A DNA stretch of 47,160 bases from Patescibacteria group bacterium (GTDB lineage: Bacteria; Patescibacteriota; Minisyncoccia; 2-02-FULL-40-12; GWA2-44-9), in contig JBBTRD010000008.1 of the NCBI GenBank assembly GCA_038065335.1, forward strand, positions 1 through 47,160, given 5' to 3'. This document shows positions 1,309-44,297 of the stretch, one piece after another; positions within the stretch are counted from its first letter, which is position 1; each line of letters starts with the position of its first letter. The notes under the pieces are model-generated. The model saw nothing but the letters and a program-made list of their open reading frames with translations, was not told the DNA's origin and did no database searches. Both the position numbers and the translations under genes were made by a program.

Positions 1309-2304
1309 CTAGATTATTTTTTGACTCGCGATAACGTTGAGGATTTTTTTGACTCGTTCCATGCTTTCGCTGTCGTGAATTGAGAGCGTTTCTATTTGGA
1401 GCTTTCCGCCGGAGGCGGATCCGCCTTTGGCGGATTGTTTCAATTTTGCAATAATCTTTTTCATTTCGACTGGTTCGATCATGTCGGACTTTGAGATGAA
1501 TAAATATTCTCTCTTTTTTAACAGGAGCGGATTATACGCGCCGAGTTCATTGCGAATAATGCCATAATCGGTGACAGGATCGGTTGATTCCGCGGACAAC
1601 AAATGGAAGAGAGTATTAGTGCGTTCAACGTGTCGGAGAAACTTCACGCCCAACCCTTTGCCACCGGACGCGCCCTCTATAATTCCCGGCACATCGGCCA
1701 AAATTAAATCATAGTACACGCCCAAATGCGGCTCAAGCGTGGTAAAAGCATAATTAGCGACTTTGCTTTTGGCTCGAGTGAGTTCGTTTAAAAGCGACGA
1801 CTTGCCGGCATTAGGCAGACCAATCAAGCCAACATCGGCGATAAGTTTTAGTTCTAATCGGACCGTGTATTTTTCTCCGGCTTCGCCTTTTTGAAATTCT
1901 TTTGGGCTAGTATTAGTTGATGAGCGAAAATGATAATTACCCTTTCCACCTCGGCCGCCTTGAGCGACCATCATTTTCTCGCCGATTTTGGTGATTTCGA
2001 CGTCGATTTTTGTGTCTAAATTGTGAACAACCGTTCCAATGGGGACTTGGATAATTAAATCGGCGCCGGTTTTGCCGTCGTTGTACTGCCGGCCGCCAAT
2101 CCCGCCATCTTCGGCTTTGAAAACTTTACTATGACGCAAGCGCAACAAAGCTCCGAGATCAGCCACCCCTTCAACATAAACCTGACCGCCATTTCCGCCC
2201 GTCGCGCCCGTCGGCCCAAGAGACATCATATTCTTATTAAAAGAAACCGTTCCATCTCCACCATTCCCCGCCACCACCCTGATTGTAATATCATCAATCA
2301 ACAT
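1309..2304 (-). CDS. obg: GTPase Obg/CgtA
   Basis: 331 aa. Obg-fold Gly-rich N-domain (GNGGDGTVSF, GGNGG, GGRGGKGN), G1 GLPNAGKSS, G3 DVPGIIEGA. Confidence 0.93.
   Translation of the reverse strand: MLIDDITIRVVAGNGGDGTVSFNKNMMSLGPTGATGGNGGQVYVEGVADLGALLRLRHSKVFKAEDGGIGGRQYNDGKTGADLIIQVPIGTVVHNLDTKIDVEITKIGEKMMVAQGGRGGKGNYHFRSSTNTSPKEFQKGEAGEKYTVRLELKLIADVGLIGLPNAGKSSLLNELTRAKSKVANYAFTTLEPHLGVYYDLILADVPGIIEGASGGKGLGVKFLRHVERTNTLFHLLSAESTDPVTDYGIIRNELGAYNPLLLKKREYLFISKSDMIEPVEMKKIIAKLKQSAKGGSASGGKLQIETLSIHDSESMERVKKILNVIASQKII
1405..1434. repeat. 30-nt GGATCC-centred palindromic element, in frame in obg
   Basis: TCCGCCGGAGGCGGATCCGCCTTTGGCGGA, identical to 5630-5659. It is translated as SAKGGSASGG in obg. 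Confidence 0.9.
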
Positions 2305-5587: not shown

Positions 5588-7387
5588 ATGACTCATCAAG
5601 AAATACGAGAAAAATTTATTAAATTCTTCTCCGCCGGAGGCGGATCCGCCTTTGGCGGAGAAGTTCTTAAACACAAGACCGTGCCGTCTTTTTCGTTGTT
5701 GCCAACCGATTCGTCGGTGTTGTTTACGACCGCCGGAATGCAACAGTTTAAACCGTATTATACGGGTGATGGCGATGCCATGAAAGATTTTGGGTCGCTT
5801 AATACTGTTTCAATCCAAAAATCAATGCGCACTTCAGATATTGATTCCGTGGGGGATGAATCACACCTCACCTTTTTTGAGATGCTCGGCAACTTCTCCT
5901 TTGGCGGTTATTGGAAAAAAGAAGCCATTGAGTATGCTCACGAATTTATAACCAAAGAGATGGGCTTAAAAATAGATTATGTTTCTGTATTTGGTGGCGA
6001 ATCCTTCGACTCCGTTCAGGACAAATCCGGCAGTGTACCGCCAGATTTGGAATCAGAAAAAATATGGCAATCGCTTGATTCATCATTGGAAGTAAAGCGA
6101 GCGGGTCGAAACGATAATTTTTGGGGACCGACGGGCAGTGAGGGTCCTTGCGGTCCGACAACGGAGATTTACGTGAATGGTCTAGAAGTTTGGAATATTG
6201 TTTTTAATGAATATTACCAATCTGCCAATAAGCAATTGAACCCCCTTAAAATTAAAGGCATTGATACTGGTATGGGCCTTGAACGTTTAGCCATGGTCTC
6301 GCAGGGGAAAACAAATATTTTTGAAACCGATTTATTTGAACCCCTTATTCAAACGTTGCCGGATTCTTTAGATTTAAGAAAGAAAAGGATTATTAGTGAT
6401 CATTTGCGAGCCGCGGTTTTTTTGATTGCTGACGGTGTCACGCCATCCAACAAAGATCAAGGCTATATTTTGCGACGTCTTTTGCGCCGAGCGATGGTTT
6501 ATGAAAATCAAGCGAATTTATCACCCCAAGTATTTGAAAACGTTTTAAGAAAGGTAATCGAAATGTATGGCCGTGAATATCCGGAAATAAAATCAAAAAA
6601 AGACGAAATAGTAAACTCTTATTTCGCTGAATGGAATAAATTTAAGAAAGCCCTTTCATCTGGCATTAAGGAACTTGAAAAACTAGGAATCATTGATGCT
6701 CAATCAGCTTTTAAGCTCTATGAAAGTTATGGTTTGCCTTTTGAAGTGATAAAAGAAGTGGGCGGGGACAAAGCGTCGAATTTAACACGGAAAGACTTTG
6801 AAACGGAAAGGATCCACCATCAGGAAAAATCTCGAGCCGGCGCGGAAAAAAAATTCGGCGGACATGGCATGACTACTAGTGACCCTTCGACGGGCTCAGG
6901 GCTAGCTTCTGAAGAAGCTAGAAAGAAAACCAGACTTCACACAGCCACTCATATTGTGGTCGCGTCTCTAGAGAAAGTTTTAGGCGAATCATTAAAACAA
7001 GCTGGCGCTGATATCACCGCCGAACGCTTGCGTTTTGATTTTGCCTTTCCACGCAAAGTGACGCCGGAAGAATTGGCTGAAGCCGAGAAAATCGCCAATC
7101 AAGCCGTGGCCGATAATTTAGAAGTTTGGTTTGAGGAACTATCGCTGGAAGAAGCTTTTGCTTCCGGCGCTCATGGCGCTTTTGCCTATAAATATCCGCC
7201 CCGAGTCACCGTTTACACTGTTGGGGGCAAGAAAGGCCCCGACGCGAAGGTCGGGGTAGATTATTTCTCTCGTGAAATTTGCGGCGGCCCCCATGTCTCC
7301 CACACCGCTGAAATCGGTCATATTAAAATCACTAAAGAGGAATCCGTGAGCGGAGGAAATAGGCGAATTCGAGCCGTGATTGAATAG
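5588..7387 (+). CDS. alaS: alanine--tRNA ligase, compact form without a C-Ala domain
   Basis: 599 aa. Motifs FTTAGMQQFKPYY, FEMLGNFSFG, WGPTG..GPCGP, and editing-domain HTATH and CGGPHV. The ORF ends just after the editing domain. Confidence 0.92.
   Translation: MTHQEIREKFIKFFSAGGGSAFGGEVLKHKTVPSFSLLPTDSSVLFTTAGMQQFKPYYTGDGDAMKDFGSLNTVSIQKSMRTSDIDSVGDESHLTFFEMLGNFSFGGYWKKEAIEYAHEFITKEMGLKIDYVSVFGGESFDSVQDKSGSVPPDLESEKIWQSLDSSLEVKRAGRNDNFWGPTGSEGPCGPTTEIYVNGLEVWNIVFNEYYQSANKQLNPLKIKGIDTGMGLERLAMVSQGKTNIFETDLFEPLIQTLPDSLDLRKKRIISDHLRAAVFLIADGVTPSNKDQGYILRRLLRRAMVYENQANLSPQVFENVLRKVIEMYGREYPEIKSKKDEIVNSYFAEWNKFKKALSSGIKELEKLGIIDAQSAFKLYESYGLPFEVIKEVGGDKASNLTRKDFETERIHHQEKSRAGAEKKFGGHGMTTSDPSTGSGLASEEARKKTRLHTATHIVVASLEKVLGESLKQAGADITAERLRFDFAFPRKVTPEELAEAEKIANQAVADNLEVWFEELSLEEAFASGAHGAFAYKYPPRVTVYTVGGKKGPDAKVGVDYFSREICGGPHVSHTAEIGHIKITKEESVSGGNRRIRAVIE
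5630..5659. repeat. 30-nt GGATCC-centred palindromic element, in frame in alaS
   Basis: 30/30 identical to 1405-1434. It is translated as SAGGGSAFGG. Confidence 0.9.
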
Positions 7388-7390
7388 GAA

Positions 7391-8398
7391 ATGAAAGACA
7401 ATTTCTGGCAAAAACTAAAAGTCCTTCGACGGGTTCAGGATAAACCTTTTTTTGTGTTGGCGCCGATGGCGGATGTGACGGATATGGCTTTTCGGCAGAT
7501 TATAGTTGAATGTGGAAAACCGGATGTTTTATATACTGAATTTATATCGGCTTCAGGATTGTGTTCCGAAAAGGGTAAAGCAAAACTATTACCTCATTTA
7601 AAATTTAAAGAAAATGAGCGACCGATCGTGGCGCAATTGTTTGGTAGTGTCCCAAAACATTTTTATGAATGCGCAAAACTGATTGTGGAATTAGGGTTTG
7701 ATGGAATTGATATTAATATGGGTTGTCCGGCCGGCAAGATTATAAAACAAGATAGCGGTTCAGGATTAATTTTAAATTCGGAATTAGCGCAAGAAATTAT
7801 CCGAGAAACTAAGCGAGGAGTGTTACAGGCAAGACCTGTTAAACAGGTCTTGCCTGTAACGGTTAAGACTCGGATTGGTTATAACTCAATTATCACCGAA
7901 GAATGGATTTCAAAACTTATTGAAGCAAAGCCCGATGCGATTATTGTTCATGGTCGAACCATGAAGGAGGCTTCAAAAGTACCGGCCCACTGGGACGAAA
8001 TTGCCAAGGCGGGCAAACTTTGTCGCGAAGCGGGGATTCCGATTATTGGCAACGGTGATGTGATGAGTTATGCCGAAGGCGTGGAAAAAGCCAAACAGTA
8101 TAATTTAGATGGTATTATGGTCGGCCGCGGGGTTTTTCATAATCCCTGGTTTTTCGACCCGTCTATTAATCCAGCCGATAAAACGCCCCAAGACAGAATC
8201 GCTCTTCTAAAAAAACATGTTAATAACTTCATTGAACTTTGGAACCCGCCAGAGGCGGGCGCGCTTCAGGCGCGAAATTTTGCCGTTATGAAAAGATTCA
8301 TAAAGATATATATCAATGATTTTGAAGGCGCAAAAGAATTAAGAGAAAAATTAATGCAAATAAAAACTTCCACTGAAATACTAGCGCTCTTGAAATAA
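7391..8398 (+). CDS. dus: tRNA-dihydrouridine synthase
   Basis: 335 aa. Dus TIM-barrel motifs LAPMADVTD, DINMGCP, VKTRIG, HGRT. Confidence 0.9.
   Translation: MKDNFWQKLKVLRRVQDKPFFVLAPMADVTDMAFRQIIVECGKPDVLYTEFISASGLCSEKGKAKLLPHLKFKENERPIVAQLFGSVPKHFYECAKLIVELGFDGIDINMGCPAGKIIKQDSGSGLILNSELAQEIIRETKRGVLQARPVKQVLPVTVKTRIGYNSIITEEWISKLIEAKPDAIIVHGRTMKEASKVPAHWDEIAKAGKLCREAGIPIIGNGDVMSYAEGVEKAKQYNLDGIMVGRGVFHNPWFFDPSINPADKTPQDRIALLKKHVNNFIELWNPPEAGALQARNFAVMKRFIKIYINDFEGAKELREKLMQIKTSTEILALLK
8245..8274. repeat. tandem GC hairpins (CCCGCC-aga-GGCGGG plus CGCGC-ttcag-GCGCG), 30 nt, in frame in dus
   Basis: Seen directly in the sequence. It is translated as PPEAGALQAR. Confidence 0.8.
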
Positions 8399-8417: not shown

Positions 8418-10130
8418 ATGTCTTCGACGAAGATTATAAATGTTCTCAAGGATGATTCGTTTCAGGAGATTATTGATATTTTTAAAGCCACGTCGGCCGA
8501 AGAGGTGATATTTGTGTTACCCAAAAGCGCGCGGGCTTTTAAAAAAGAAGAGCAATTTGCATCGCTTCGAGAAGAAGCCAAGACACTGGATAAATCGGTT
8601 TCTTTCTTGTGTTCCAGTCTAGAAATTAATGATCTAGCCAAAAAGTATAGATTTGAAGTTCTTTTGGCCCATTCGGCGAGCTTAGGGCAAGCTCGTTCGC
8701 CGGAAGTACGAAAAAAGTCTAATCCATCTCGCCTAACACCAACTGAAACGAGTTCGATTGATGTAGTGAATGAAATAGAAGATTTTTACGCCGAACCAGC
8801 GACGAGTGATGATTCAATCTCAATTTCACAGCCAATAAAAACAGAAGAAGTATTTACCGATGACCGGCGCCTTGACGATATCTTTGTACCCGAAGCAGAA
8901 GATCAGCATAATGTGAAAGTAGCTGGTGCCCGTGAGAAAGCGTTGTTTGTTCAAGTAAATCAAGACAATAAAGAACACAAAATTCGGCGCCCCACCCATC
9001 GAACAGTTTTGATTTTTTTGACTTGTGCGACGGTCGTCATTCTGGGAGCGGTCATTTTTATCACCGCCGGAAAAGCCCGGATTACTATCAAGCCGGTCAG
9101 CCAACCACTTGATCTTAGTCTGACTATATTTACTTCAGATGATGTTTCCTCCACTAGTTTGGCAAACATGGCCATTCCCGGTCAGCTGTTTAATATTCAA
9201 AAAACTGTTTCTCAAGATTTTACCGCGACTGGCCGTGTGGATGTTGCCCAAAAAGCGCGCGGGGCGATTACTGTCTATAATGAACTTTCGACGGATCAAC
9301 CATTGATAGCCACGACTCGATTTGAATCAGCCGATCGTCATATTTTTCATACCCTAACTTCAATCGTGGTGCCGGCCGGCAAAATTTCTAGCGGTAAATT
9401 TGTGCCCGGCAGTAAAGAGGTTCAGCTTATCGCTGATAAGGCCGGTTCCGAGTATAACGTTCCGGCAGGCCCGTTCACGATTCCGGCGTTTAAAGAACAA
9501 GGGGCTGCGGAAAAATATCAAAAGGTTTACGGTCGATCAACCGCTCCTATTCTTAACGGTACCAGCGGCCAATCAACAATCGTAACCGAAACTGATTTAA
9601 GCGCCGCCAGACAAACCCTCACCACTCAACTCACCGCTAATATTCAAGACGAATTGGAAACTCAAATTAATGGTCTAAAAATTATTAATGATCGTCAAAT
9701 TGTCGTGAGTAATCCTGTATCAACTAGTCCCGTTGACGCAAAGACGGCCACTTTTCAAGTTAATCTTTCTGGTTCACTCAAAACCGTTGGTTTTAAAGAA
9801 TCTGACCTTAACGCTCTCGTTGCTCAATACGTTGATACTCAAAAAAATATGACCACCTTGCCTGACAAACTCGTACTGACGTACGATAAAACTAAGTGGG
9901 ACGACACTAAAAACGGTCTCTCTTTCACAATTCACGTCACTGGCCCAAGTTACACCAAGATTGACCAACAAAAAATTATTACTGATTTATTAGGTAAGAA
10001 TGACGCGGAAATGAGAGCCTATCTGGGCGCAGTTACAGGTATTTCGTCAGCTCATGTCTCCTTGTCTCCATTCTGGGTCAAATCCATTCCCAGTAATAAG
10101 GATAAGGTACAAGTAGAACTTTCATATTAA
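8418..10130 (+). CDS. hypothetical membrane-anchored protein (570 aa)
   Basis: Long ORF with a cytoplasmic N-domain, a low-complexity linker, one TM helix (VLIFLTCATVVILGAVIFI) and a large beta-rich ectodomain. I cannot assign a family from sequence alone. Confidence 0.75.
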   Translation: MSSTKIINVLKDDSFQEIIDIFKATSAEEVIFVLPKSARAFKKEEQFASLREEAKTLDKSVSFLCSSLEINDLAKKYRFEVLLAHSASLGQARSPEVRKKSNPSRLTPTETSSIDVVNEIEDFYAEPATSDDSISISQPIKTEEVFTDDRRLDDIFVPEAEDQHNVKVAGAREKALFVQVNQDNKEHKIRRPTHRTVLIFLTCATVVILGAVIFITAGKARITIKPVSQPLDLSLTIFTSDDVSSTSLANMAIPGQLFNIQKTVSQDFTATGRVDVAQKARGAITVYNELSTDQPLIATTRFESADRHIFHTLTSIVVPAGKISSGKFVPGSKEVQLIADKAGSEYNVPAGPFTIPAFKEQGAAEKYQKVYGRSTAPILNGTSGQSTIVTETDLSAARQTLTTQLTANIQDELETQINGLKIINDRQIVVSNPVSTSPVDAKTATFQVNLSGSLKTVGFKESDLNALVAQYVDTQKNMTTLPDKLVLTYDKTKWDDTKNGLSFTIHVTGPSYTKIDQQKIITDLLGKNDAEMRAYLGAVTGISSAHVSLSPFWVKSIPSNKDKVQVELSY

Positions 10131-10142
10131 CCGCCTGTTGAT

Positions 10143-10211
10143 CCCGAACGAAGTCTGGCTCGCGCTCAGAGCGCGAGTCCGAAGGACCTTAGCTAGGCTA
10201 CTTCGTACGGG
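10143..10211. repeat. 69-nt structured palindromic element, intergenic copy (reverse orientation, about 78 percent identical to the copies at 22214 and 24305)
   Basis: Position-by-position comparison of its reverse complement with 22214-22282 gives 54/69 matches. TTGA direct repeats at 10138-10141 and 10213-10216. Confidence 0.85.
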
Positions 10212-10330
10212 ATTGACGTATCTTATTAGGTTTGATAGTATATAAACACTGAATTGACCACGATTACTAAGTGGCGTAGGAGCTTCTCCGATGCCCACTC
10301 TTGGTGGACGTCTTTTTTTCAGTACTATAT

Positions 10331-14630: not shown

Positions 14631-14660
14631 GTAGAAGCCCCGCCCTGGCGGGGCTTCTAC
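14631..14660. terminator. bidirectional GC hairpin between convergent rpsI and 14662..15519
   Basis: GTAGAAGCCCCGCC/GGCGGGGCTTCTAC perfect inverted repeat, 30 nt, with the CCCGCC..GGCGGG core. It lies 5 nt after the rpsI stop and 1 nt before the other gene's stop. Confidence 0.75.
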
Positions 14661-14661
14661 T

Positions 14662-17887: not shown

Positions 17888-18633
17888 AAATCTCCGTCAA
17901 ATCTAAAACGGTTCTGGTGGGAGTATTAAAAACCAGAAGGGATCAGAAAATTCTTCTAGAAAAGCATTGGTATCGCATTCCCGTTTTGCATCTTCCAAAA
18001 CGAAATTTTAAATATATTGCTTTTTATCAACCGCTAGGGTTTGGAAAACACGGTAAACGGATTGAATATTACGCTCAAGTTTCAAAGACTTCGATTTCAA
18101 AAAGAATCAATTTGTTGCCCGATGAGTCCAATCATCCTCGCGCCAGCGATGACTATAAACGGTTTGAGTTTAAAGAAATCCTAAAACTTGAGAAGCCCAT
18201 CAGAAATATCATTCCCCGCAGAATCGTGTTTGGTTTTACAACCTTGAAAGCTCTGCTCTCATCAAAAGATATTCTGCAACTCTATGGTGTGTTGCCGACC
18301 GAACAAATTGTTCAACGAGCACTGAAACGTTTTGGCATCCAACCTATAATCGAACATACCGTCTCTGCTCAAGGCCGCTGTTATCGTATTGACTTGGCTC
18401 TTATTATTGTGCGCCCGCCCGCCTCTGGCGGGAATGGGCGAATAGCCATAGAATGTGATAACCTTAAAGCCCATTCCACTAAAACCCAAATCCAAAAAGA
18501 TAAAACCAAGGATCGCTTCCTCAAATCTATCGGTTGGCACGTCATCCGTCTCACCGAAAAAGACATCGTCGAAAATCTCCATTTCTGTATCGCCCGTATA
18601 ATAAAAACCATCAAAGCCCTCGGTGGCCAATGA
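17884..18633 (+). CDS. DUF559/Vsr-like PD-(D/E)xK endonuclease-domain protein
   Basis: 249 aa. The C-terminal YRIDLA...IAIECDNLKAH...D..R...L...GW.V.RL pattern is typical of DUF559. The N-terminal domain is unassigned. Confidence 0.7.
   Translation: MKISVKSKTVLVGVLKTRRDQKILLEKHWYRIPVLHLPKRNFKYIAFYQPLGFGKHGKRIEYYAQVSKTSISKRINLLPDESNHPRASDDYKRFEFKEILKLEKPIRNIIPRRIVFGFTTLKALLSSKDILQLYGVLPTEQIVQRALKRFGIQPIIEHTVSAQGRCYRIDLALIIVRPPASGGNGRIAIECDNLKAHSTKTQIQKDKTKDRFLKSIGWHVIRLTEKDIVENLHFCIARIIKTIKALGGQ
18411..18440. repeat. 30-nt nested GC palindrome (CGCCC-GCCCGCC-tct-GGCGGG-aat-GGGCG) in frame in the DUF559 gene
   Basis: Seen directly in the sequence. It is translated as VRPPASGGNGR and shares CCCGCCTCTGGCGGG with fmt 39599-39613. 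Confidence 0.85.
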
Positions 18634-19978: not shown

Positions 19979-21347
19979 AGCTCTTATAATTTTGAAAACC
20001 GGGGCCAACGTTTTTTTGACGGGAGAACCGGGTTCGGGTAAAAGCTACACTGTTAACGAGTACGTGCGATATTTGCGCGCCCATAATATTGAGCCGGCCA
20101 TTACGGCTTCGACGGGCATCGCCGCCACTCATATCGGCGGAATGACGATTCATTCGTGGAGCGGAATTGGAATTCACACCAGTTTAGATAAGCAGGATAT
20201 CCGCCGAATTGCTTCGAGCAAGCACGTCGGAAAGCGAATGCGCGAAACTAATGTTTTAATAATTGACGAATGTTCAATGCTTCCGCCTAAAACGCTCGAT
20301 ATGGTTGAGGCCGTCTGTCGGGAAGCGCGCAAAAGTTACGAACCTTTCGGCGGACTTCAAATTATTTTGGTAGGTGATTTTTTTCAACTCCCGCCGATTA
20401 TTAAACGAAAAACTGAAGACCTGCCTGCCGGACAGGCAGGCGATTCCAATCAGATTATCTTGCTTGATGAACCCGAAGTTCGTTTTGCTTATGATTCTTC
20501 GGCTTGGACGCGAGCTAAACCTATTACGTGTTATCTCACCGAACAACACCGTCAAGACGATAAAAATTATTTGGGCATTCTTTCCGCAATTCGAGATAAT
20601 ACTTTTAACATGAAGCATGTTGGCCATCTCGAAAGCCGACGCACGACTTATGACAAAATCTCCGATGAAGCGCCCAAACTTTTTTCTCACAACGTGGACG
20701 TAGATTTAGTTAATAAGAATATGCTTTCTCAATTGCCCGGCGAACTGATGGAATTTCCAATGCGATCTTACGGCGTACCGAAATTAATAGCGACCCTAAT
20801 AAAGGGCTGCCTGTCGCCGGAATTTTTGAATTTAAAAATCGGAGCCTCGGTAATGTTCACGAAAAATAATCCCCGCGCCGGATTTGTAAATGGCACGCTT
20901 GGTATTGTTGAAGATTTTCGTAAAGACGATAACTACCCCATGATACGAACTCGGGCCGGACGACTCGTGGTCGCCGAACCCATGAACTGGGGCATTAAGG
21001 AAGGGGGCATATCTAAAGCCACGATCACCCAGATGCCATTGCGCTTGGCTTGGGCCATTACGGTTCACAAAAGCCAAGGGATGAGTCTCGATGAAGCCGT
21101 AATGGATTTAAGCGAGGTTTTTGAATACGGCCAAGGTTATGTCGCCCTCTCGCGAGTCAGACGATTATCCGGCGTCCATTTGATTGGCTGGAATCAGCGC
21201 GCTTTTCAGGTTCATCCCGAAGTCATCGCTAAAGAAAAAGAGTTCCAAATCGCTTCCAGTCTGGCCGAAAAAGAATATCGGGAATTGTCTCCAAAAATTA
21301 TTACCCAAAGACACGAATTTTTTATTAAAATGTGTACTAAAAAATGA
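19965..21347 (+). CDS. Pif1/RecD-like SF1B helicase
   Basis: 460 aa. Motifs GEPGSGKS, TASTGIAA, LIIDECSM, VGDFFQLPP, HRQ, TVHKSQG, YVALSRV. Confidence 0.88.
   Translation: MTQIEALIILKTGANVFLTGEPGSGKSYTVNEYVRYLRAHNIEPAITASTGIAATHIGGMTIHSWSGIGIHTSLDKQDIRRIASSKHVGKRMRETNVLIIDECSMLPPKTLDMVEAVCREARKSYEPFGGLQIILVGDFFQLPPIIKRKTEDLPAGQAGDSNQIILLDEPEVRFAYDSSAWTRAKPITCYLTEQHRQDDKNYLGILSAIRDNTFNMKHVGHLESRRTTYDKISDEAPKLFSHNVDVDLVNKNMLSQLPGELMEFPMRSYGVPKLIATLIKGCLSPEFLNLKIGASVMFTKNNPRAGFVNGTLGIVEDFRKDDNYPMIRTRAGRLVVAEPMNWGIKEGGISKATITQMPLRLAWAITVHKSQGMSLDEAVMDLSEVFEYGQGYVALSRVRRLSGVHLIGWNQRAFQVHPEVIAKEKEFQIASSLAEKEYRELSPKIITQRHEFFIKMCTKK
20420..20440. repeat. CCTGCCTGCCGG-a-CAGGCAGG palindrome in frame in the helicase gene
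   Basis: Same core as 39298-39317 and 43881-43900. It is translated as LPAGQAG. Confidence 0.8.
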
Positions 21348-23470
21348 AAATTGCCCTCATTACCCTCAACTATAACGGTGCGGAAAGCACCATCAAACTT
21401 TTGGAATCTCTACAGAATCAGACCGACCCTGATTTTTCCCTTATTGTCGCCGACAATGGTTCTACGGACATCCAAAAACTCCGAGATTATTGTGAAAATA
21501 AACCTATTCATATCATTGAAAATGGGGCTAATTTAGGATTCGGCGGAGGTTGCAACATTGCCATAAAGAGGGCCCTCAAAAATGGGGCGAGTTGGCTTGT
21601 TTTGTTAAATAACGACACTTGGGTCGAATCTGACTTTATCAGCCATTTAAAAGCCATTCTAGAGCGTACAAACGGCCTTGTCGGGTTACCTATTGACGAG
21701 GGGGATGGAGAAATTGCCATGGGTGGCCGACTTGAGTGGTTGAGTCCGACATTGAGTCATAATCACAGTTTTCTCAACCATAAACAAAATGCGCGAAAAA
21801 ACGGAAAAAACGTTTGCTATGCCATTGGCGGTGGGATGGCTATTGATTCATCGGCCGTCGAAAAAATCGGTTATTTTGACGAAAATTATTTTCTTTATTT
21901 TGAAGATGCGGATTTATCAATGCGGGCCCATGAAGCAGGCGTTCCAATAGCTTTTCCGACGAAACCGATCATTCATCACACTGTTTCAACAACCACGAGA
22001 AAACTCGGCGCGCCGTTACTTTTGCGTTACCACTATCGTAATGCTCTTTATTTTAATTTTAAAAACGCGCCTTTGTTTTATAAAATTGGCGCGATTTTTT
22101 GGAGTGTCATCATTTTCGTCAAACAACTGGTTAAATTATTAAGCAACATTCATCCTGCCGAGTCGCGAGCCATTCTGGCCGGCATTATTGATTTTTATCA
22201 AGAAAGGATGGGTCCCGTTAGAAGTAGCCTCGCCGAGGTCCGAAGGACTCGCGCCAAAGGCGCGAGCGAGACTTCGTACGGGATGGGCCGCATCTCCAAA
22301 AAAATTAAAGTCGGCATTGAATGTGAGCAAATTGAGGGCGAAATCTGGGGCGTGGGAAAGATTATTACCAAACTTTTAGAAAATATCGCTTCTCGGCCGG
22401 AACTGGAAAAAGATTTTGAATTTCATCTTTATTTCAAATCAAAAATTCCAAAACTATTATTCCTAGACAATTCAATATTTCATAAAAAAGTTATTGAGCA
22501 GCCGTTCCGGCACAAATCGTTTGTATTTTATTACTATGTTTTGCTTCCGATTCAGCTTTGGTTTGAACGGCTCGATGTCATGTTTTTCCCAAATTATATG
22601 TTGCCCATTATTTTTTTCGGCAATTCTGTCGTCATGCTAACCGAGGATATATATTACGAGATGCGGTCAAAACAACAACGATTCCATCATCGTTTGGCTT
22701 ATCGGGTTTTTGCCACTTGGGCCACCTGGCGAGCCAATAAAATTATGGCCATTTCGCAAACTTCAAAGAAAGAACTGGTTCGATTGTTTAACATTGAACC
22801 AGCCCGCATCGTGGTAAATCTACTCGCGGTAGATTCGGCAAAAATAGATTCTTTTTCCAACATTGGAAATTGCCCGCCCGCCGAAGCTTTAGCGAAGGAG
22901 GGGAAATTGAAAAATGAAAATTATCTATTGTTCGTCGGCCAATCTTTTCCCCGTCGACATTTAGCGGAATCATTGCTCGCCTTTGAAAAAATAGCGTCGG
23001 AATTTCAAGATTTGAAATTTATTATTGTTGGCCCGGACAAATATAATCCGCCGAGGATCAGACAACTTCAACAAGATATCAATTCTCGACTCGGCGGTGA
23101 GAGAATAATTTGGCATGAACGCGTATCCCAAGAAGAATTATCGCAACTTTATGCTCACACTCTGGCAACGATTTATATTTCATCCCGCGAAGCCTTTGGT
23201 TTGCCTCCGTTGGAAGGCCTGGCTCAAGGAAGCGTGCCAATAATCGCCGAAAATGCTTTGGGCCATGAGTTGTTTGAAGAGTGCGCTGTTTTTATCGCTA
23301 ATCCCGATTCAGTAGATGATATCGCTTCAGCTTTGCGTGAGGCCATGACAAATTCAACACTCCGTGAGAAAATAAAAGCGCATGCGCCAGAAATAGTTGA
23401 TCGTTACACTTGGCGCGCTCACACCGATCGGTTTCTAGAAATAATCAAATCTATGACCCGGCATGCCTAA
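21344..23470 (+). CDS. bifunctional glycosyltransferase (N-terminal GT2, C-terminal GT4)
   Basis: 708 aa. GT2 motifs ITLNYNG, ADNGSTD, LLNNDT, FEDADL. GT4 motif EAFGLPPLEGLAQGSVPI. The ATGA overlaps the upstream stop. Confidence 0.88.
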   Translation: MKIALITLNYNGAESTIKLLESLQNQTDPDFSLIVADNGSTDIQKLRDYCENKPIHIIENGANLGFGGGCNIAIKRALKNGASWLVLLNNDTWVESDFISHLKAILERTNGLVGLPIDEGDGEIAMGGRLEWLSPTLSHNHSFLNHKQNARKNGKNVCYAIGGGMAIDSSAVEKIGYFDENYFLYFEDADLSMRAHEAGVPIAFPTKPIIHHTVSTTTRKLGAPLLLRYHYRNALYFNFKNAPLFYKIGAIFWSVIIFVKQLVKLLSNIHPAESRAILAGIIDFYQERMGPVRSSLAEVRRTRAKGASETSYGMGRISKKIKVGIECEQIEGEIWGVGKIITKLLENIASRPELEKDFEFHLYFKSKIPKLLFLDNSIFHKKVIEQPFRHKSFVFYYYVLLPIQLWFERLDVMFFPNYMLPIIFFGNSVVMLTEDIYYEMRSKQQRFHHRLAYRVFATWATWRANKIMAISQTSKKELVRLFNIEPARIVVNLLAVDSAKIDSFSNIGNCPPAEALAKEGKLKNENYLLFVGQSFPRRHLAESLLAFEKIASEFQDLKFIIVGPDKYNPPRIRQLQQDINSRLGGERIIWHERVSQEELSQLYAHTLATIYISSREAFGLPPLEGLAQGSVPIIAENALGHELFEECAVFIANPDSVDDIASALREAMTNSTLREKIKAHAPEIVDRYTWRAHTDRFLEIIKSMTRHA
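22214..22282. repeat. 69-nt structured palindromic element, in frame (frame 0) in the GT2/GT4 linker
   Basis: 68/69 identical to 24305-24373. It is translated as PVRSSLAEVRRTRAKGASETSYG and flanked by ATGGG at 22208-22212 and 22283-22287. Confidence 0.92.
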
Positions 23471-25103
23471 ATTATTAAATCCACTTTTTATATTTCATCT
23501 TATTTTTGTGGCGTTAGTTTTAATCGGCGAAATTCCGCGTGAACTTGTTATTTATGAAACCGGTCTATTGGTTTTATATTTCTTGTTTGCTTCCATTGAA
23601 GACGGGTTAATATTTTTTGTTCGTTCAATTCCGCTTTTTATCGCCATCCCGCTGACCGCGAATTACGACAACCTCAATCAATGGCGGATTCTGGCAATTA
23701 TTTTATTCGGCAAATGGCTGTTCACTCGGGAGACCTGGCATTACTTCGGAGCTTGGCTAGTTTTATTATTCCGAAAGCCTTGGATTGTCATCAAAGAGCA
23801 TCCTTGGGCGGCTTTGTTTAAGATTTTAGCAATCCTTAGCCTGTTGTCTTTGTGGCACGCTCCTGACCGGATTGAAGGTTTAAAACGGATTATTTATTTT
23901 ATCAACGCCGCTCTCGTCGCCGTTGTTATTGTTTATCCGCCTCGAAGCCATGAGTTTATCAAACGACTCATTAAAAATATTATCGCCCCGATCATTATTG
24001 TCGTTCTCGTTGGCGTCGTTCAAGTTGCCTCCACTTATTTTATAGACATTTATCAATTTATGAGAATTTGGGGCGAGGGAATTCAACTTAGAGAGTTTGG
24101 CGCGATGTGGTCGTATATCGCCGTCAATGTTGGTAATACCTGGTTTGCTTACTTCGGCGACCAACTCTCGCTCCGAGTGTTTTCCCTCTTTCCCGACTCC
24201 CATTCGTTTCCAATATTTTTACTGCTTGGCCTGCCCGCGTTTTTTGCTTGGACTCTTGTCAAGCCGCTCGGTCGAGCGACAAGAATGCGCGATATGCTTT
24301 TTACCCCGTTAGAAGTAGCCTCGCCGAGGTCCGAAGGACTCGCGCCAAAGGCGCGAGCGAGACTTCTTACGGGGTTTACCCGTGGCAAGCTAGCTGTGCT
24401 TTGGATTCCTTTAATATTCTTGATGATGATTCTTTCTGGCACTCGAGGCATCTGGATAGGCGGAGTCATAATGACGATTTGGATTCTCTTTGTCTTTTTG
24501 TATATGCGCCGCAATAGAGTCGCGGCCGAAAAAATCAATATCTTTCGATACATATCGTACTATATATTTATTTTTTTCTTATTGTTTGCCGTGGCTTATC
24601 CTATATTTTCTTCCCCTCAATTCTTGGTATCTAAAGGAGACGCTTTCCTGCTTCAGCAACGATTTAAGTCAATCTTTGATTTCGGCGAAACTTCGAATAG
24701 CCAACGGATTGAAATTTGGAAAAAAAGTTTGGTTTCTATTGAACATAATCCTGTGTTTGGAGTTGGTATTGGAAATTTCCCCGTCGTTCTCGGCCAAAAC
24801 ATTAAACTAACTAAGGCTGGTTCGTCGGCTCATAACATTTATCTGCAAGTCGCTTCGGAAATGGGGATTCCGGCGGCATTGTTTTTTTTATGGTTCATCT
24901 GGTTGGTTTTGAAACAAACCTACAAACGCTTCATAAAATCTACCGAGCCGGCGTATCAGGCCTATTTCGGCGGGCTCCTAATCACCCTGCCTTGGATTCT
25001 GGCTTATTTAATGACTGACGTGGCAATTTTTGACGAACGAGCTCTTCTTCTCTGTGTCGCCACCCTCGCGATTGTGGCCACGCCTTTGCACGCTCATGAA
25101 TAA
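23463..25103 (+). CDS. O-antigen ligase/polymerase (Wzy_C-like) family membrane protein
   Basis: 546 aa. Polytopic membrane protein with loop motifs SGTRGIWIG and SAHNIYLQVASEMGI. Confidence 0.8.
   Translation: MPKLLNPLFIFHLIFVALVLIGEIPRELVIYETGLLVLYFLFASIEDGLIFFVRSIPLFIAIPLTANYDNLNQWRILAIILFGKWLFTRETWHYFGAWLVLLFRKPWIVIKEHPWAALFKILAILSLLSLWHAPDRIEGLKRIIYFINAALVAVVIVYPPRSHEFIKRLIKNIIAPIIIVVLVGVVQVASTYFIDIYQFMRIWGEGIQLREFGAMWSYIAVNVGNTWFAYFGDQLSLRVFSLFPDSHSFPIFLLLGLPAFFAWTLVKPLGRATRMRDMLFTPLEVASPRSEGLAPKARARLLTGFTRGKLAVLWIPLIFLMMILSGTRGIWIGGVIMTIWILFVFLYMRRNRVAAEKINIFRYISYYIFIFFLLFAVAYPIFSSPQFLVSKGDAFLLQQRFKSIFDFGETSNSQRIEIWKKSLVSIEHNPVFGVGIGNFPVVLGQNIKLTKAGSSAHNIYLQVASEMGIPAALFFLWFIWLVLKQTYKRFIKSTEPAYQAYFGGLLITLPWILAYLMTDVAIFDERALLLCVATLAIVATPLHAHE
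24305..24373. repeat. 69-nt structured palindromic element, in frame (a different frame) in the Wzy-like gene
   Basis: It is translated as PLEVASPRSEGLAPKARARLLTG and flanked by TTTAC at 24300-24304 and 24375-24379. Confidence 0.92.
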
Positions 25104-39232: not shown

Positions 39233-39359
39233 GGTTAAGAACCTGCCTTTTGACCCAGTAGCGGAAGGGGTCCCAGCGAAGCTGGGGAAACCGACGGCCT
39301 GCCTGCCGGCAGGCAGGGACTGGTTTCCCGGGTCTGGGGCAAAAGGCAGGTTCTTAACC
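39233..39359. repeat. 127-nt MITE-like element with 20-bp perfect terminal inverted repeats, filling the def-fmt spacer
   Basis: GGTTAAGAACCTGCCTTTTG (39233-39252) and CAAAAGGCAGGTTCTTAACC (39340-39359). Central 20-nt palindrome CCTGCCTGCCGGCAGGCAGG (39298-39317). Confidence 0.85.
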
Positions 39360-39364
39360 GCAAT

Positions 39365-40267
39365 ATGAAAATAATTTTCTTTGGGACATCTGAATTTGCG
39401 GTACCGGCGCTAGAGACACTCCATGGTGCTGGTTTTGATGTTACGGTCATCACTATGCTCGATCAACCGGTCGGCCGAAAAAAGATTCTCACACCGACGC
39501 CAGTTAAGGTCGCGGCGGAAAAACTTGGTCTCAAAGTTCTCCAGCCACTGAAACTAAAGGATGATGTATTTTTTGAAGAATTTTTAGCCCTGGGCGAACC
39601 CGCCTCTGGCGGGCAGTTCCAACCTCCCGATTTTTGTGTTATCGCCGCCTACGGCAAAATTATCGCCGAACGATATATAAATACCCCTAAATATGGGTTT
39701 TTAAATATTCATCCTTCTCTTCTTCCGAAGTATCGAGGACCAACACCCATTCAGACTGCAATTCTCAATGGTGAAGATACAATTGGTGTCTCCATCATAC
39801 AAATTGATAAAGACGTGGACCATGGCGGAATTTTTTCGAAGCAAGAATTACGAATTACGAATTACGAAAACTACAAAAAAATTTATGATAAGCTCGCTGA
39901 ACTTGGGGCAAAATTATTGGTTGAAACAATCCCTAAAATTATTTCCGGAGAAATCAAGCCGAAGGAGCAAGACCACAGCCAGGCGATATTCACGAAAATA
40001 TTTACTCGAGAAGATGCCCGCATTGATTGGTCTCGTCCGCCTCAAGAAATTTATAACCAAATCCGCGCCCTCAACCCCGAACCCGGCACTTGGACAACAT
40101 GGAACGACAAAGTAGTGAACATCAAAGCCGCCTCCTTCGCTAAAACTACGGAAGGCCACAACAAGCAACTAAAATTGCTCATTGTACAACTTGAAGGGAA
40201 AAAAGAAACATCCATGTCTGATTTTCTCTCTGGCCATCCCGATTTCGATGTCTCTCAATTAAAATAA
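39365..40267 (+). CDS. fmt: methionyl-tRNA formyltransferase
   Basis: 300 aa. MKIIFFGTSEFAVP..., NIHPSLLPKYRG, downstream of def. Confidence 0.94.
   Translation: MKIIFFGTSEFAVPALETLHGAGFDVTVITMLDQPVGRKKILTPTPVKVAAEKLGLKVLQPLKLKDDVFFEEFLALGEPASGGQFQPPDFCVIAAYGKIIAERYINTPKYGFLNIHPSLLPKYRGPTPIQTAILNGEDTIGVSIIQIDKDVDHGGIFSKQELRITNYENYKKIYDKLAELGAKLLVETIPKIISGEIKPKEQDHSQAIFTKIFTREDARIDWSRPPQEIYNQIRALNPEPGTWTTWNDKVVNIKAASFAKTTEGHNKQLKLLIVQLEGKKETSMSDFLSGHPDFDVSQLK
39599..39613. repeat. CCCGCC-tct-GGCGGG hairpin in frame in fmt
   Basis: Identical 15-mer to the one within 18411-18440. It is translated as PASGG in both genes. Confidence 0.8.
39845..39865 (+). repeat. (GAATTAC)x3 heptanucleotide tandem repeat inside fmt
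   Basis: Three perfect units, 21 nt, in frame (ELRITNY). Confidence 0.9.
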
Positions 40268-40804: not shown

Positions 40805-40814
40805 TATCTGCATT

Positions 40815-40852
40815 ATATGTCAAATCCCGCCAACTGGCGGGATTTGACATAT
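40815..40852. terminator. perfect 17-bp hairpin with a CCCGCC..GGCGGG core
   Basis: ATATGTCAAATCCCGCC-aact-GGCGGGATTTGACATAT. Confidence 0.7.
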
Positions 40853-40874
40853 AAATTAGTGTGGCAACTTAACT

Positions 40875-40924
40875 AACTTACACTTTAGAAATAGCTCGTA
40901 CGAGCTATTTCTAAAGTGTAAGTT
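40875..40924. terminator. 50-nt perfect palindrome centred on GCTCGTACGAGC
   Basis: AACTTACACTTTAGAAATAGCTCGT|ACGAGCTATTTCTAAAGTGTAAGTT, 4 nt downstream of the 40929..41768 stop. Confidence 0.75.
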
Positions 40925-43616: not shown

Positions 43617-44240
43617 ATGGCTATCCCCGTAAACGATTTAAAACCCAAAACATATTTTATTTATGAGGGCCAACCCTACGTGGTTTTGGAAACTCATCAT
43701 TTAAAGATGCAACAGCGTCGACCGACGGTGCAGGTTCGGATGCGCAATCTCATCAATGGTAAAATGCTCGAACGCAATTTCGCCCAGTCGGATATTTTTG
43801 AACCCGCCGACGTCGAGCACCAAAAAGTTAAATATCTTTACGCTCATCGCGATCAGTATTGGTTTTCATACGAAAAAGATCTGCCTGACCGGCAGGCAGG
43901 ACCGGCCAAGCGTTTTGAATTAAAATCCGAAATTATCGGTGATTCTGCTAAATTTCTTAAGCCCAATACCTTAATTGATGCCATTGCTTTTTCCGCCGAA
44001 GGCGGATCCGCCTCCGGCGGAGAGTCTCAAATCATCAGCATTGAATTGCCCATCAAAATGGAGTTCAAAGTTACTGAAGCTCCGCCAGCCATCCGGGGCG
44101 ACACCGCTCAAGGGGGGGTCAAACAAGCGACGATTGAAACCGGCGCCTCAATCAACGTTCCTCTCTTTATTAACCAAGGCGATACTATCTTGATCAACAC
44201 CGAAACCGGTGATTATGTAGAACGAGTCAATAAAGGTTAA
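43617..44240 (+). CDS. efp: elongation factor P (with two in-frame repeat insertions)
   Basis: I chose the start at in-frame ATG 43617 (MAIPVNDLKPKTYFIYEGQPYVVLE...). The C-terminal motif is GDTAQGG.K.ATIETGA...VPLFI..GD.I.I.T..G.Y..R. Confidence 0.9.
   Translation: MAIPVNDLKPKTYFIYEGQPYVVLETHHLKMQQRRPTVQVRMRNLINGKMLERNFAQSDIFEPADVEHQKVKYLYAHRDQYWFSYEKDLPDRQAGPAKRFELKSEIIGDSAKFLKPNTLIDAIAFSAEGGSASGGESQIISIELPIKMEFKVTEAPPAIRGDTAQGGVKQATIETGASINVPLFINQGDTILINTETGDYVERVNKG
43881..43900. repeat. CTGCCTG-accgg-CAGGCAG palindrome in frame in efp
   Basis: Same core family as 20420-20440 and 39298-39317. It is translated as LPDRQAG. Confidence 0.8.
43992..44021. repeat. 30-nt GGATCC-centred palindromic element, in frame in efp
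   Basis: TCCGCCGAAGGCGGATCCGCCTCCGGCGGA, with 29/30 matches to the reverse complement of 1405-1434. It is translated as SAEGGSASGG. Confidence 0.9.
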
Positions 44241-44261
44241 TTAAACTCACAAAAAAATGAT

Positions 44262-44297
44262 ATTTTATAAATGGCTCGTACGAGTCATTTATAAAAT
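44262..44297. terminator. 36-nt near-perfect palindrome centred on GCTCGTACGAG, between convergent efp and 44303..44944
   Basis: ATTTTATAAATGGCTCGT|ACGAGTCATTTATAAAAT, with one G-T position. It shares its core with 40875-40924. Confidence 0.7.

Follow-up and report, generated by a model that had tools for sequence, protein, structure and literature searches.

Background

In the AT-rich mitochondrial genome of yeast, the GC clusters and 'byp' elements are small, GC-rich, hairpin-forming mobile inserts in coding sequence, and byps are skipped by the ribosome. Patescibacteria (Candidate Phyla Radiation, CPR) have tiny streamlined genomes, and their proteins contain many unexplained lineage-specific inserts. 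Rickettsia palindromic elements (RPEs) insert in-frame into many unrelated genes and are translated there as extra segments compatible with the protein fold (PMC10969869). Here we describe a 71-nt palindromic element of a Patescibacteria group bacterium (assembly GCA_038065335.1, contig JBBTRD010000008.1), which occurs three times in the stretch of 47,160 nt that was analysed (the window), twice of these within adjacent genes for a fusion glycosyltransferase and a Wzy_C family membrane protein. Comparison with orthologues and with metagenomic relatives suggests that it very probably belongs to a dispersed family of miniature transposable elements.

The repeated element and its host genes

The original prediction, made from the window alone, described a 69-nt structured repeat shared by two adjacent genes at 68 of 69 positions and translated in two reading frames into two unrelated peptides. 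This repeat was found at 22214-22282 and 24305-24373 with a single G-to-T mismatch, and none of 100 shuffled sequences gave any match. Copy 1 lies sense in the GT2/GT4 fusion gene, where it is read in frame +1 from the first base of the 69-mer as PVRSSLAEVRRTRAKGASETSYG and covers residues 290-315 of the 708-aa protein. Copy 2 lies sense in the Wzy_C (O-antigen-ligase-like) gene, where it is read in frame +2 (phase 2) as PLEVASPRSEGLAPKARARLLTG and covers residues 281-306 of the 546-aa protein. Both peptides are exactly those predicted, and four of the six frames of the 69-mer are free of stops as had been reported (+1, +2, -1 and -2 are open; +3 and -3 contain stops).

Several points in the original prediction required correction. 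The unit is not 69 nt but 71 nt, which with a 4-bp duplication of the target gives 75 nt, and a third, diverged copy on the minus strand had been overlooked (Table 1). This copy is intergenic, 11 nt past the stop of an open reading frame (ORF) at 8418-10130 (570 aa) and upstream of infA, and TCAA stands on either side of it, at 10213-10216 and 10138-10141. Where it differs from copies 1 and 2, the changes are compensatory or lie in loops. At the DNA level, each of the three window copies lies between short direct repeats set exactly 75 nt apart.

An assembly artefact, named beforehand as something that would undo the prediction, is excluded. The window is also represented in ENA assembly ERZ1292624 (contig "Hain_H41_01um…"). 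At least eight assemblies contain the 708-aa protein with its insert, which is recorded at NCBI under MEK7645601.1 ("MAG: Patescibacteria group bacterium"), and both window copies are also present in a separate low-coverage assembly, ERZ2470813. Since copy 2 has a G in that independent assembly, the G-to-T difference between copies 1 and 2 is a strain-specific single-nucleotide polymorphism. Window position 24367 is T, while locus L004 and copy 1 have G; with the T, pair 8:64 of the outer stem is A-T instead of an A·G mismatch, a change towards the family consensus CTAA.

Evidence of insertion

Orthologues of both host proteins show the clean 25-residue gap that had been foreseen. In an alignment of 20 Wzy-like sequences, 18 of the 19 orthologues lack exactly 25 residues and read …RDML-FTRGK…, and close orthologues have 521-522 aa compared with 546 aa in the window. 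In the glycosyltransferase alignment 18 of 19 orthologues likewise lack exactly 25 residues, reading …DFYQER-MG…. The residues at the junctions are those that a duplicated target gives: the TGGG duplication and the last A of copy 1 regenerate ATGGG (Met-Gly), and the TTTA duplication doubles Phe-Thr at copy 2, while the orthologues have a single MG and a single FT, respectively. The predicted junction peptides of the translated inserts are ERMGPVR…, …SYGMGR and …MLFTPLEVASPR.

Trees of the host proteins place the occupied lineages apart, as non-sisters, at both window sites. In the other lineage with an occupied glycosyltransferase site (P0127, loci L005-L008), the element faces the opposite way. 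Because of this non-sister occupancy and these opposite orientations, either the same nucleotide was hit recurrently or the element was precisely lost several times.

At a further locus, L034, a 71-nt copy has a 68-nt relative nested inside it, the latter with a separate duplication, CTCG. The locus also holds a tandem of three elements, each placed in a TGAA that the preceding one regenerated. Nesting and tandem re-insertion are hallmarks of transposition, and together with the terminal inverted repeats, target-site duplications and empty sites they establish mobility. The elements of this locus lie in-frame in type IV pilin-like genes, in tandem and nested, at the prepilin G-FT motif. In the leader they amount to 297 nt (99 codons), with GFT present four times and the cleavage motif restored; should cleavage of the leader take place, these inserts would be discarded along with it.

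A family with shared ends and varied cargo

A pattern fitted to seven copies was used to search public metagenomes and returned at least 118 stretches, mostly from groundwater projects and including other Hainich wells, which agrees with the expectation of a repeat dispersed among related metagenomes. The 107 distinct copies among them are the set behind the family counts given below. An earlier pattern, GAAGT-N13-GGTCC-NNN-GGACTCGCGC, was too strict, with one chance match in a GC-rich deltaproteobacterial metagenome-assembled genome and none in metagenomes. A protein search with four joined open-frame peptides had low sensitivity, and found only the antisense ORF described below and one new copy.

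The CCCG…CGGG core is 69 nt long in 84 of the 107 copies and 70-74 nt in the other 23 (21%), which have a longer P4 hairpin. The base before the core is complementary to the base after it in 106 copies (T…A in 89, C…G in 17), and the element is therefore 71 nt long. Its terminal inverted repeats are 13 bp, Y-CCCGT[TA/AC]GAAGT … ACTTC..ACGGG-R. A perfect 4-bp duplication flanks 73 of 107 copies, and does so in a single register; when the register is shifted, no more than one copy has it. The duplicated 4-mers have the form T-N-N-A (TTCA 35, TTTA 6, TCAA 6, TCCA 5, TTGA 5, and others), with T and A at the outer positions in 96% each and still in at least 93% in copies away from gene starts. A 5-bp duplication around a 70-nt element was considered and rejected, as base -1 pairs with base +1 and often differs from the base that follows the second copy of the duplication.

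The same 13-bp ends and TNNA duplications also bracket elements of 59-218 nt with unrelated interiors. The ends therefore define a superfamily, and the GC-rich 71-mer is one of its cargo types. These terminal repeats and duplications are shared by an AT-rich family, about 110 nt long, which is often found at ATGAAT sites (Table 1); other cargo types, 59-72 nt long, were seen at loci L013, L027, L110, L112 and L124.

Copies inside genes

For copies inside genes, each element and one copy of its duplication were removed computationally, and an ORF with at least 100 codons on each side had to span the restored site. Among the 17 sites of this kind, 16 were in-frame and stop-free and one was disrupted. 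All 17 have the 69-nt core, although about a fifth of the family differ in length. This is the pattern that purifying selection on a translated insert would predict, and it argues against ribosomal bypass or splicing. The predicted habit of lodging in coding sequence without breaking it was thus borne out, as was a mobile element, but most members of the family were found instead at start codons or between genes. It was also correct that the nucleic acid and not the peptide is conserved, as the family makes use of four reading frames and its base pairs covary.

In the AlphaFold model of the window glycosyltransferase (mean predicted local distance difference test score, pLDDT, 78), residues 289-315, which are the insert, have a pLDDT below 50 and lie between a confident helix at the end of the GT2 half and the strand with which the GT4 half begins. 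The model of the Wzy protein has a mean pLDDT of 65, and places the insert in a low-confidence inter-helix stretch, being too weak for more.

Landing sites at start codons

On the strand opposite to the element, 52 of the 107 copies adjoin the initial ATG of an ORF that is at least 60 codons long. In 48 of the 52, the frame on the upstream side of the duplicated ATG is closed after no more than 30 codons (median 5.5), compared with 49% at control ATGAA sites; these are therefore true gene starts, and the target there is A-TGAA-T. Read-through from the upstream ATG, as MNPVRSLARAKGASPEDLGGATSNG-M…, is possible in only 24 of the 52. In the remaining copies this is prevented by stops, by a length not divisible by 3 or by mutation of the upstream ATG, and there the element forms a leader that abuts the working ATG. 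After read-through cases had been moved, the copies were classed as approximately 44 antisense at start sites, 2 sense at start sites, 15 robustly in genes and 34 intergenic or unclear. The genes with start-site copies are diverse, and include a DNA methylase, an HtrA-like protease, a cupredoxin, TrmD and a sugar transferase.

When the loci were emptied of elements computationally, the occupied ATGAAT hexamers numbered 18 at starts, 3 in intergenic DNA and 3 in coding sequence, and the free ones 81, 87 and 569, respectively. With these admittedly crude gene classes, start hexamers are occupied more often than intergenic ones (odds ratio 6.4, p = 0.001).

Two pilin-like genes of L034 carry the element in the sense direction, and the duplication on the canonical strand is again TTCA (GGA-TTCA-CC, in the G-FT prepilin motif). 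The orientation bias seen at starts thus goes with the target and not with the gene. We had considered this bias as a sign of RNA function, and rejected that idea given the canonical-strand TTCA in the pilin genes.

Fold and covariation

The element is structured, as predicted, with a folding z-score of -3.9 to -4.3 for the window element, but the rod-like shape attributed to it was not upheld. The 84 distinct 71-mers fold instead into a three-way junction, with helices P1 of 13 bp, P2 of 5 bp, P3 of 4 bp (3-nt loop) and P4 of 7 bp (3-nt loop), and RNAalifold recovered the junction independently. In these 84 copies 96.8% of the paired cells hold a base pair, compared with 23-42% for slid partners, and double-sided changes were found in 129 cells against 38.6 ± 4.3 in shuffles (0 of 500 reached the observed number). 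Compensatory changes occur at nine pairs in P1, P2 and P4. The P1 arms are paired in 97.9% of cells, and their end variants TTAG/CTAA and TACG/CGTA covary. Pair 18:57 of P2 is a C·A mismatch in 36 of the 84, so that in many copies P2 is in effect a helix of 3-4 bp. The two strands fold equally well, whether as RNA or as DNA, and pairing may matter at either level. An alternative P3 pairing, CCGAG/UUCGG, predicted for copies with a TTC loop, was unsupported, as position 23 varies between G and A without compensation. No Rfam family matched the element at the gathering score, the best permissive match having E = 0.24 and 14.7 bits against a threshold of 40.

Between copies that are otherwise nearly identical, the hairpin loops are often reverse complements (GAA/TTC, AAA/TTT), and the two hairpins flip independently, which we infer to be palindrome-mediated template switching. 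In this pattern-ascertained set the P3 loop on the canonical strand is purine-rich in 8 of 8 sense copies (6 independent sites, with both window copies included) but in only 1 of 41 antisense and 1 of 25 intergenic copies (p = 2e-8). On the mRNA strand it is nearly always GAA-like, being purine-rich in all 8 sense and in 40 of 41 antisense copies; the window loops are at 22242-22244 and 24333-24335. Outside the ascertained set, the L034 pilin copies and one copy at L032 are exceptions. The polarity could reflect selection for hydrophilic codons (E/K/R over F/L) or selection on RNA.

Origin of the element and alternative explanations

[quoted passage not shown] An enzyme supplied in trans would recognise its ends, cut the target with a 4-nt stagger and integrate the element. 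An insertion within a gene would be translated as a 25-residue, probably disordered loop, and its translation would be harmless because 71 and 4 nt together make 25 codons and four of the six frames are stop-free. Selection would retain such copies only in tolerant places, such as an inter-domain linker, a membrane-protein loop or a prepilin leader. Since TTCA is the complement of TGAA, A-TGAA-T at a gene start is the commonest landing place; there the ATG is doubled, and the element becomes either an N-terminal extension of 25 aa or a structured leader next to the working ATG. Its GC-rich interior may stay paired by selection, or else by palindrome-driven template switching, which would also flip the hairpin loops.

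Several points weigh against this conclusion. Neither an autonomous relative nor a transposase turned up in the window, among roughly 1 Mb of fetched loci or in viral contigs, and the functions encoded in the window are housekeeping only. The fixed orientation at an asymmetric target (TTCA 35, TGAA 2) is unusual for an element with identical terminal repeats, the excess at start sites is not fully explained by sequence preference alone, and covariation in the interior is not needed by an element that is recognised purely by its ends. Mobility is deduced from comparative data. Long intervals of 587, 2554 and 3293 nt bounded by terminal inverted repeats were considered as autonomous elements and set aside as chance pairs of separate elements around housekeeping genes; in viral contigs the terminal 16-mer had 41 matches, all of them chance by the covariance model. 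An unrecognised integration machinery, with its fixed orientation at TTCA, its 4-nt stagger and a true preference for start sites, might make the element a mobile, modular 'start-codon cassette', a proposal that we regard as unlikely. If it were true, such a cassette, by doubling the ATG and adding either the 25-aa extension or the structured leader, would drive the evolution of protein inserts and 5' leaders generally in these reduced genomes, and the polarity of the P3 loop on the mRNA strand would reflect selection at the RNA or peptide level.

A role at gene starts was also weighed in the form of a domesticated module, in which the RNA three-way junction regulates translation initiation or the 25-aa peptide MNPVRSLARAKGASPEDLGGATSNG serves as a tag; this would be compatible with a mobile origin. 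The 44 of 107 copies lying exactly on start codons, the enrichment of start-like ATGAAT sites over intergenic ones, the strong covariation in three helices and a P3 loop whose polarity tracks gene direction all speak for it. We nevertheless consider it improbable, as the same ends occur with unrelated, even AT-rich, interiors at the same kinds of site, orientation follows TTCA even when the element is sense to a pilin gene, fewer than half of the start-site copies are readable from the upstream ATG, and the host genes are functionally unrelated; the exceptions to the P3 rule and the Rfam result point the same way. The GC-rich hairpin-forming interior, with GTAG immediately 5' (GAAGTAGCC), the orientation-specific insertion beside TTCA-like 4-mers and the equal folding of both strands as DNA would also suit a single-strand hairpin element of the REP/REPIN-RAYT or IS200/IS605 (PATE) type, inserted beside a specific tetranucleotide by a Y1 HUH transposase for which folded hairpins are the recognition signal. 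Such families, however, are without target-site duplications or terminal inverted repeats, whereas the 4-mer here is duplicated and variable (TGGG, TTTA, TCAA and others), empty sites have one copy of it, and the terminal inverted repeats are 13 bp and perfect. No Y1 transposase gene was present near any copy examined, and an origin of this type seems very improbable.

The very stable structure within coding sequence, and its likeness to the mobile GC-rich clusters that include the yeast byps, raise the question of whether the insert is translated at all, or is passed over by ribosomal skipping as in T4 gene 60 and the mitochondrial byps, or removed from the mRNA in the manner of a mini-intron. 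Its length and stops would then be irrelevant, yet the in-gene copies are stop-free in the host frame in all but one case and the added length is divisible by 3 in every one, unlike in 21% of the family; there is also no ribozyme or intron match in Rfam, and we think skipping or removal extremely unlikely. The short distance between copies 1 and 2, which are 2 kb apart and nearly identical, would fit a local duplication, gene conversion between neighbours or an assembly chimera without any mobility. More than 100 unlinked sites from many metagenome projects, duplicated target bases that differ from site to site, and the recovery of the insert in at least eight assemblies and in an independent low-coverage one refute such an origin, whose likelihood is close to negligible.

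Feature coordinates and other small inserts

The features of the window and of the related loci are given in Table 1. Both host genes are intact. In a public assembly the 134-aa antisense ORF over copy 2 is called as a gene, P0001; spurious ORF predictions of this sort arise because the antisense frames of the element are open.

Table 1. Coordinates of the element, its host genes and relatives, and of other repeats observed.
Feature	Locus	Position	Strand	Details
Copy 1, 71-nt element T-CCCG…CGGG-A	window	22213-22283	+	covariance model 88.7 bits, E = 9e-19
Copy 1 target-site duplication TGGG	window	left 22209-22212, right 22284-22287	+	direct repeat, 75-nt offset
Copy 1 helix P1	window	22213-22225/22271-22283
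Copy 1 helix P2	window	22229-22233/22266-22270
Copy 1 helix P3	window	22238-22241/22245-22248		loop GAA
Copy 1 helix P4	window	22249-22255/22259-22265		loop AAA
Copy 2, 71-nt element C-CCCG…CGGG-G	window	24304-24374	+	covariance model 92 bits, E = 1.5e-19
Copy 2 target-site duplication TTTA	window	left 24300-24303, right 24375-24378	+	direct repeat, 75-nt offset
Copy 3, diverged, intergenic	window	10142-10212	-	covariance model 86.1 bits, E = 3.6e-18; 54/69 identical over core
Host gene 1, GT2 + GT1/GT4 fusion glycosyltransferase	window	21344-23470	+	708 aa; Pfam GT2 residues 6-175, GT1/GT4 517-682
Host gene 2, Wzy_C / O-antigen-ligase family membrane protein	window	23463-25103	+	546 aa; Pfam Wzy_C 317-476
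Antisense ORF P0001 over copy 2	window	24149-24553	-	134 aa
Type IV pilin-like genes with in-frame elements	L034	652-2328	-
Type IV pilin-like genes with in-frame elements	L034	5481-5815, 6461-6531
AT-rich relative, about 110 nt	L015	5418-5526
AT-rich relative, about 110 nt	L016	9136-9245
AT-rich relatives, about 110 nt	L018	9026-9138, 12281-12391
AT-rich relative, about 110 nt	L032	9912-10015
AT-rich relative, about 110 nt	L033	305-414
AT-rich relative, about 110 nt	L036	3238-3352
AT-rich relative, about 110 nt	L039	11384-11494
AT-rich relative, about 110 nt	L063	3878-3989
AT-rich relative, about 110 nt	L119	4907-5020
AT-rich relative, about 110 nt	L124	7124-7230
30-nt GC-rich double hairpin	window	1403-1434, 5630-5659, 43992-44023
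30-nt GC-rich double hairpin, diverged	window	39582-39622
Small GC-rich hairpins within ORFs	window	20419-20441 and 39296-39318; 8245-8279; 18410-18440; 22876-22910
Perfect AT-rich palindrome	window	40875-40924		25+25 nt
Imperfect AT-rich palindrome, related	window	44253-44295 (also 40813-40854)
Terminator-like hairpin	window	14634-14661

Other GC-rich repeats were noted in the window. A 30-nt double hairpin (TCCGCC-GGA-GGCGGA followed by TCCGCC-TTT-GGCGGA, 10 codons) sits inside the Obg, AlaRS and EF-P genes (and Fmt), and looks like another family of in-frame mini-inserts. Further small hairpins lie within the ORFs of a PIF1 helicase (CCTGCCTGCCGG…CAGGCAGG), Dus and a 249-aa protein, and in the window glycosyltransferase as an 11-aa insert, CPPAEALAKEG, which coincides with a stretch of low AlphaFold confidence at residues 501-524. 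Other lineage-specific small inserts, with peptides rich in G+C-type codons, were seen in the orthologues P0006, P0020, P0127-P0129, P0131, P0133 and P0138, among them NRNQSSRGGSALSG (at the N-terminus), PSAHSTGSVQASSGQA and STRSPQA. These sequences suggest that such mini-inserts are common in this clade. Unrelated to the element are the perfect AT-rich palindrome and its imperfect relative, 3.3 kb apart, and a terminator-like hairpin, GTAGAAGCCCCGCC-CTG-GCGGGGCTTCTAC, which is followed by T-rich sequence directly past the gene for ribosomal protein S9.

Significance

A 71-nt mobile palindrome that enters genes as a harmless 25-residue loop would be a concrete and datable source for some of the lineage-specific inserts of patescibacterial proteins. 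The family supplies natural markers for strain typing of uncultured groundwater bacteria, and its positions in glycosyltransferases, in a membrane ligase and in prepilin leaders make up a catalogue of "tolerated insertion sites". The element is also a pitfall for annotation, in which it can cause false N-terminal extensions, spurious antisense ORFs and wrong start-codon calls.

Comparison with known elements

Every defining feature of a MITE is present here save a known autonomous parent. The element is 71 nt long (relatives 59-218 nt) and has no coding capacity, its terminal inverted repeats are 13 bp, its duplication has a fixed length of 4 bp (perfect in 73 of 107 copies), and its copies are dispersed (at least 118 matches) and polymorphic in presence and absence. 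It resembles bacterial MITEs such as Correia/NEMIS of Neisseria, RUP, Nezha and the QMITEs in being short and non-coding, in its insertion polymorphism and in occasional in-frame fusions with ORFs. It differs from them in its unusually small size, in a length that together with the duplication is a multiple of three with four open frames, in the covarying three-way junction of its interior, in its orientation-specific insertion at TTCA and in having no known parent insertion sequence.

REP and REPIN sequences are also GC-rich imperfect palindromes in AT-richer genomes, with GTAG beside the hairpin and a high copy number, but they are extragenic and have neither terminal inverted repeats nor a duplication, whereas the element described here possesses the two features and is also found within genes, and none of the copies examined had a Y1 gene nearby. 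PATEs derived from IS200/IS605 insert at a fixed tetra- or pentanucleotide without duplication and have subterminal hairpins, unlike this element, whose flanking 4-mer is variable and duplicated. In contrast to the byps of yeast mitochondria, frame and stop statistics indicate that the patescibacterial element is read through and translated. A full-text search of the literature found no paper that links MITEs or palindromic inserts in coding sequence with Patescibacteria or CPR, and this is apparently a widespread, undescribed MITE-like family, of a known kind, in an under-studied phylum.

With RPEs the element shares the character of a short, palindromic, dispersed repeat, found in-frame in unrelated genes and outside coding sequence as well, in hosts whose genomes are small and reduced. 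Relatedness in sequence is not expected between the two. RPEs are about 100-150 bp and belong to Alphaproteobacteria, whereas the present element is 71 nt, belongs to Patescibacteria, has 13-bp terminal inverted repeats and a T-N-N-A duplication, and is found mostly at start codons. By this analogy it appears to work like an RPE without being one, and is set apart by its length and its host.

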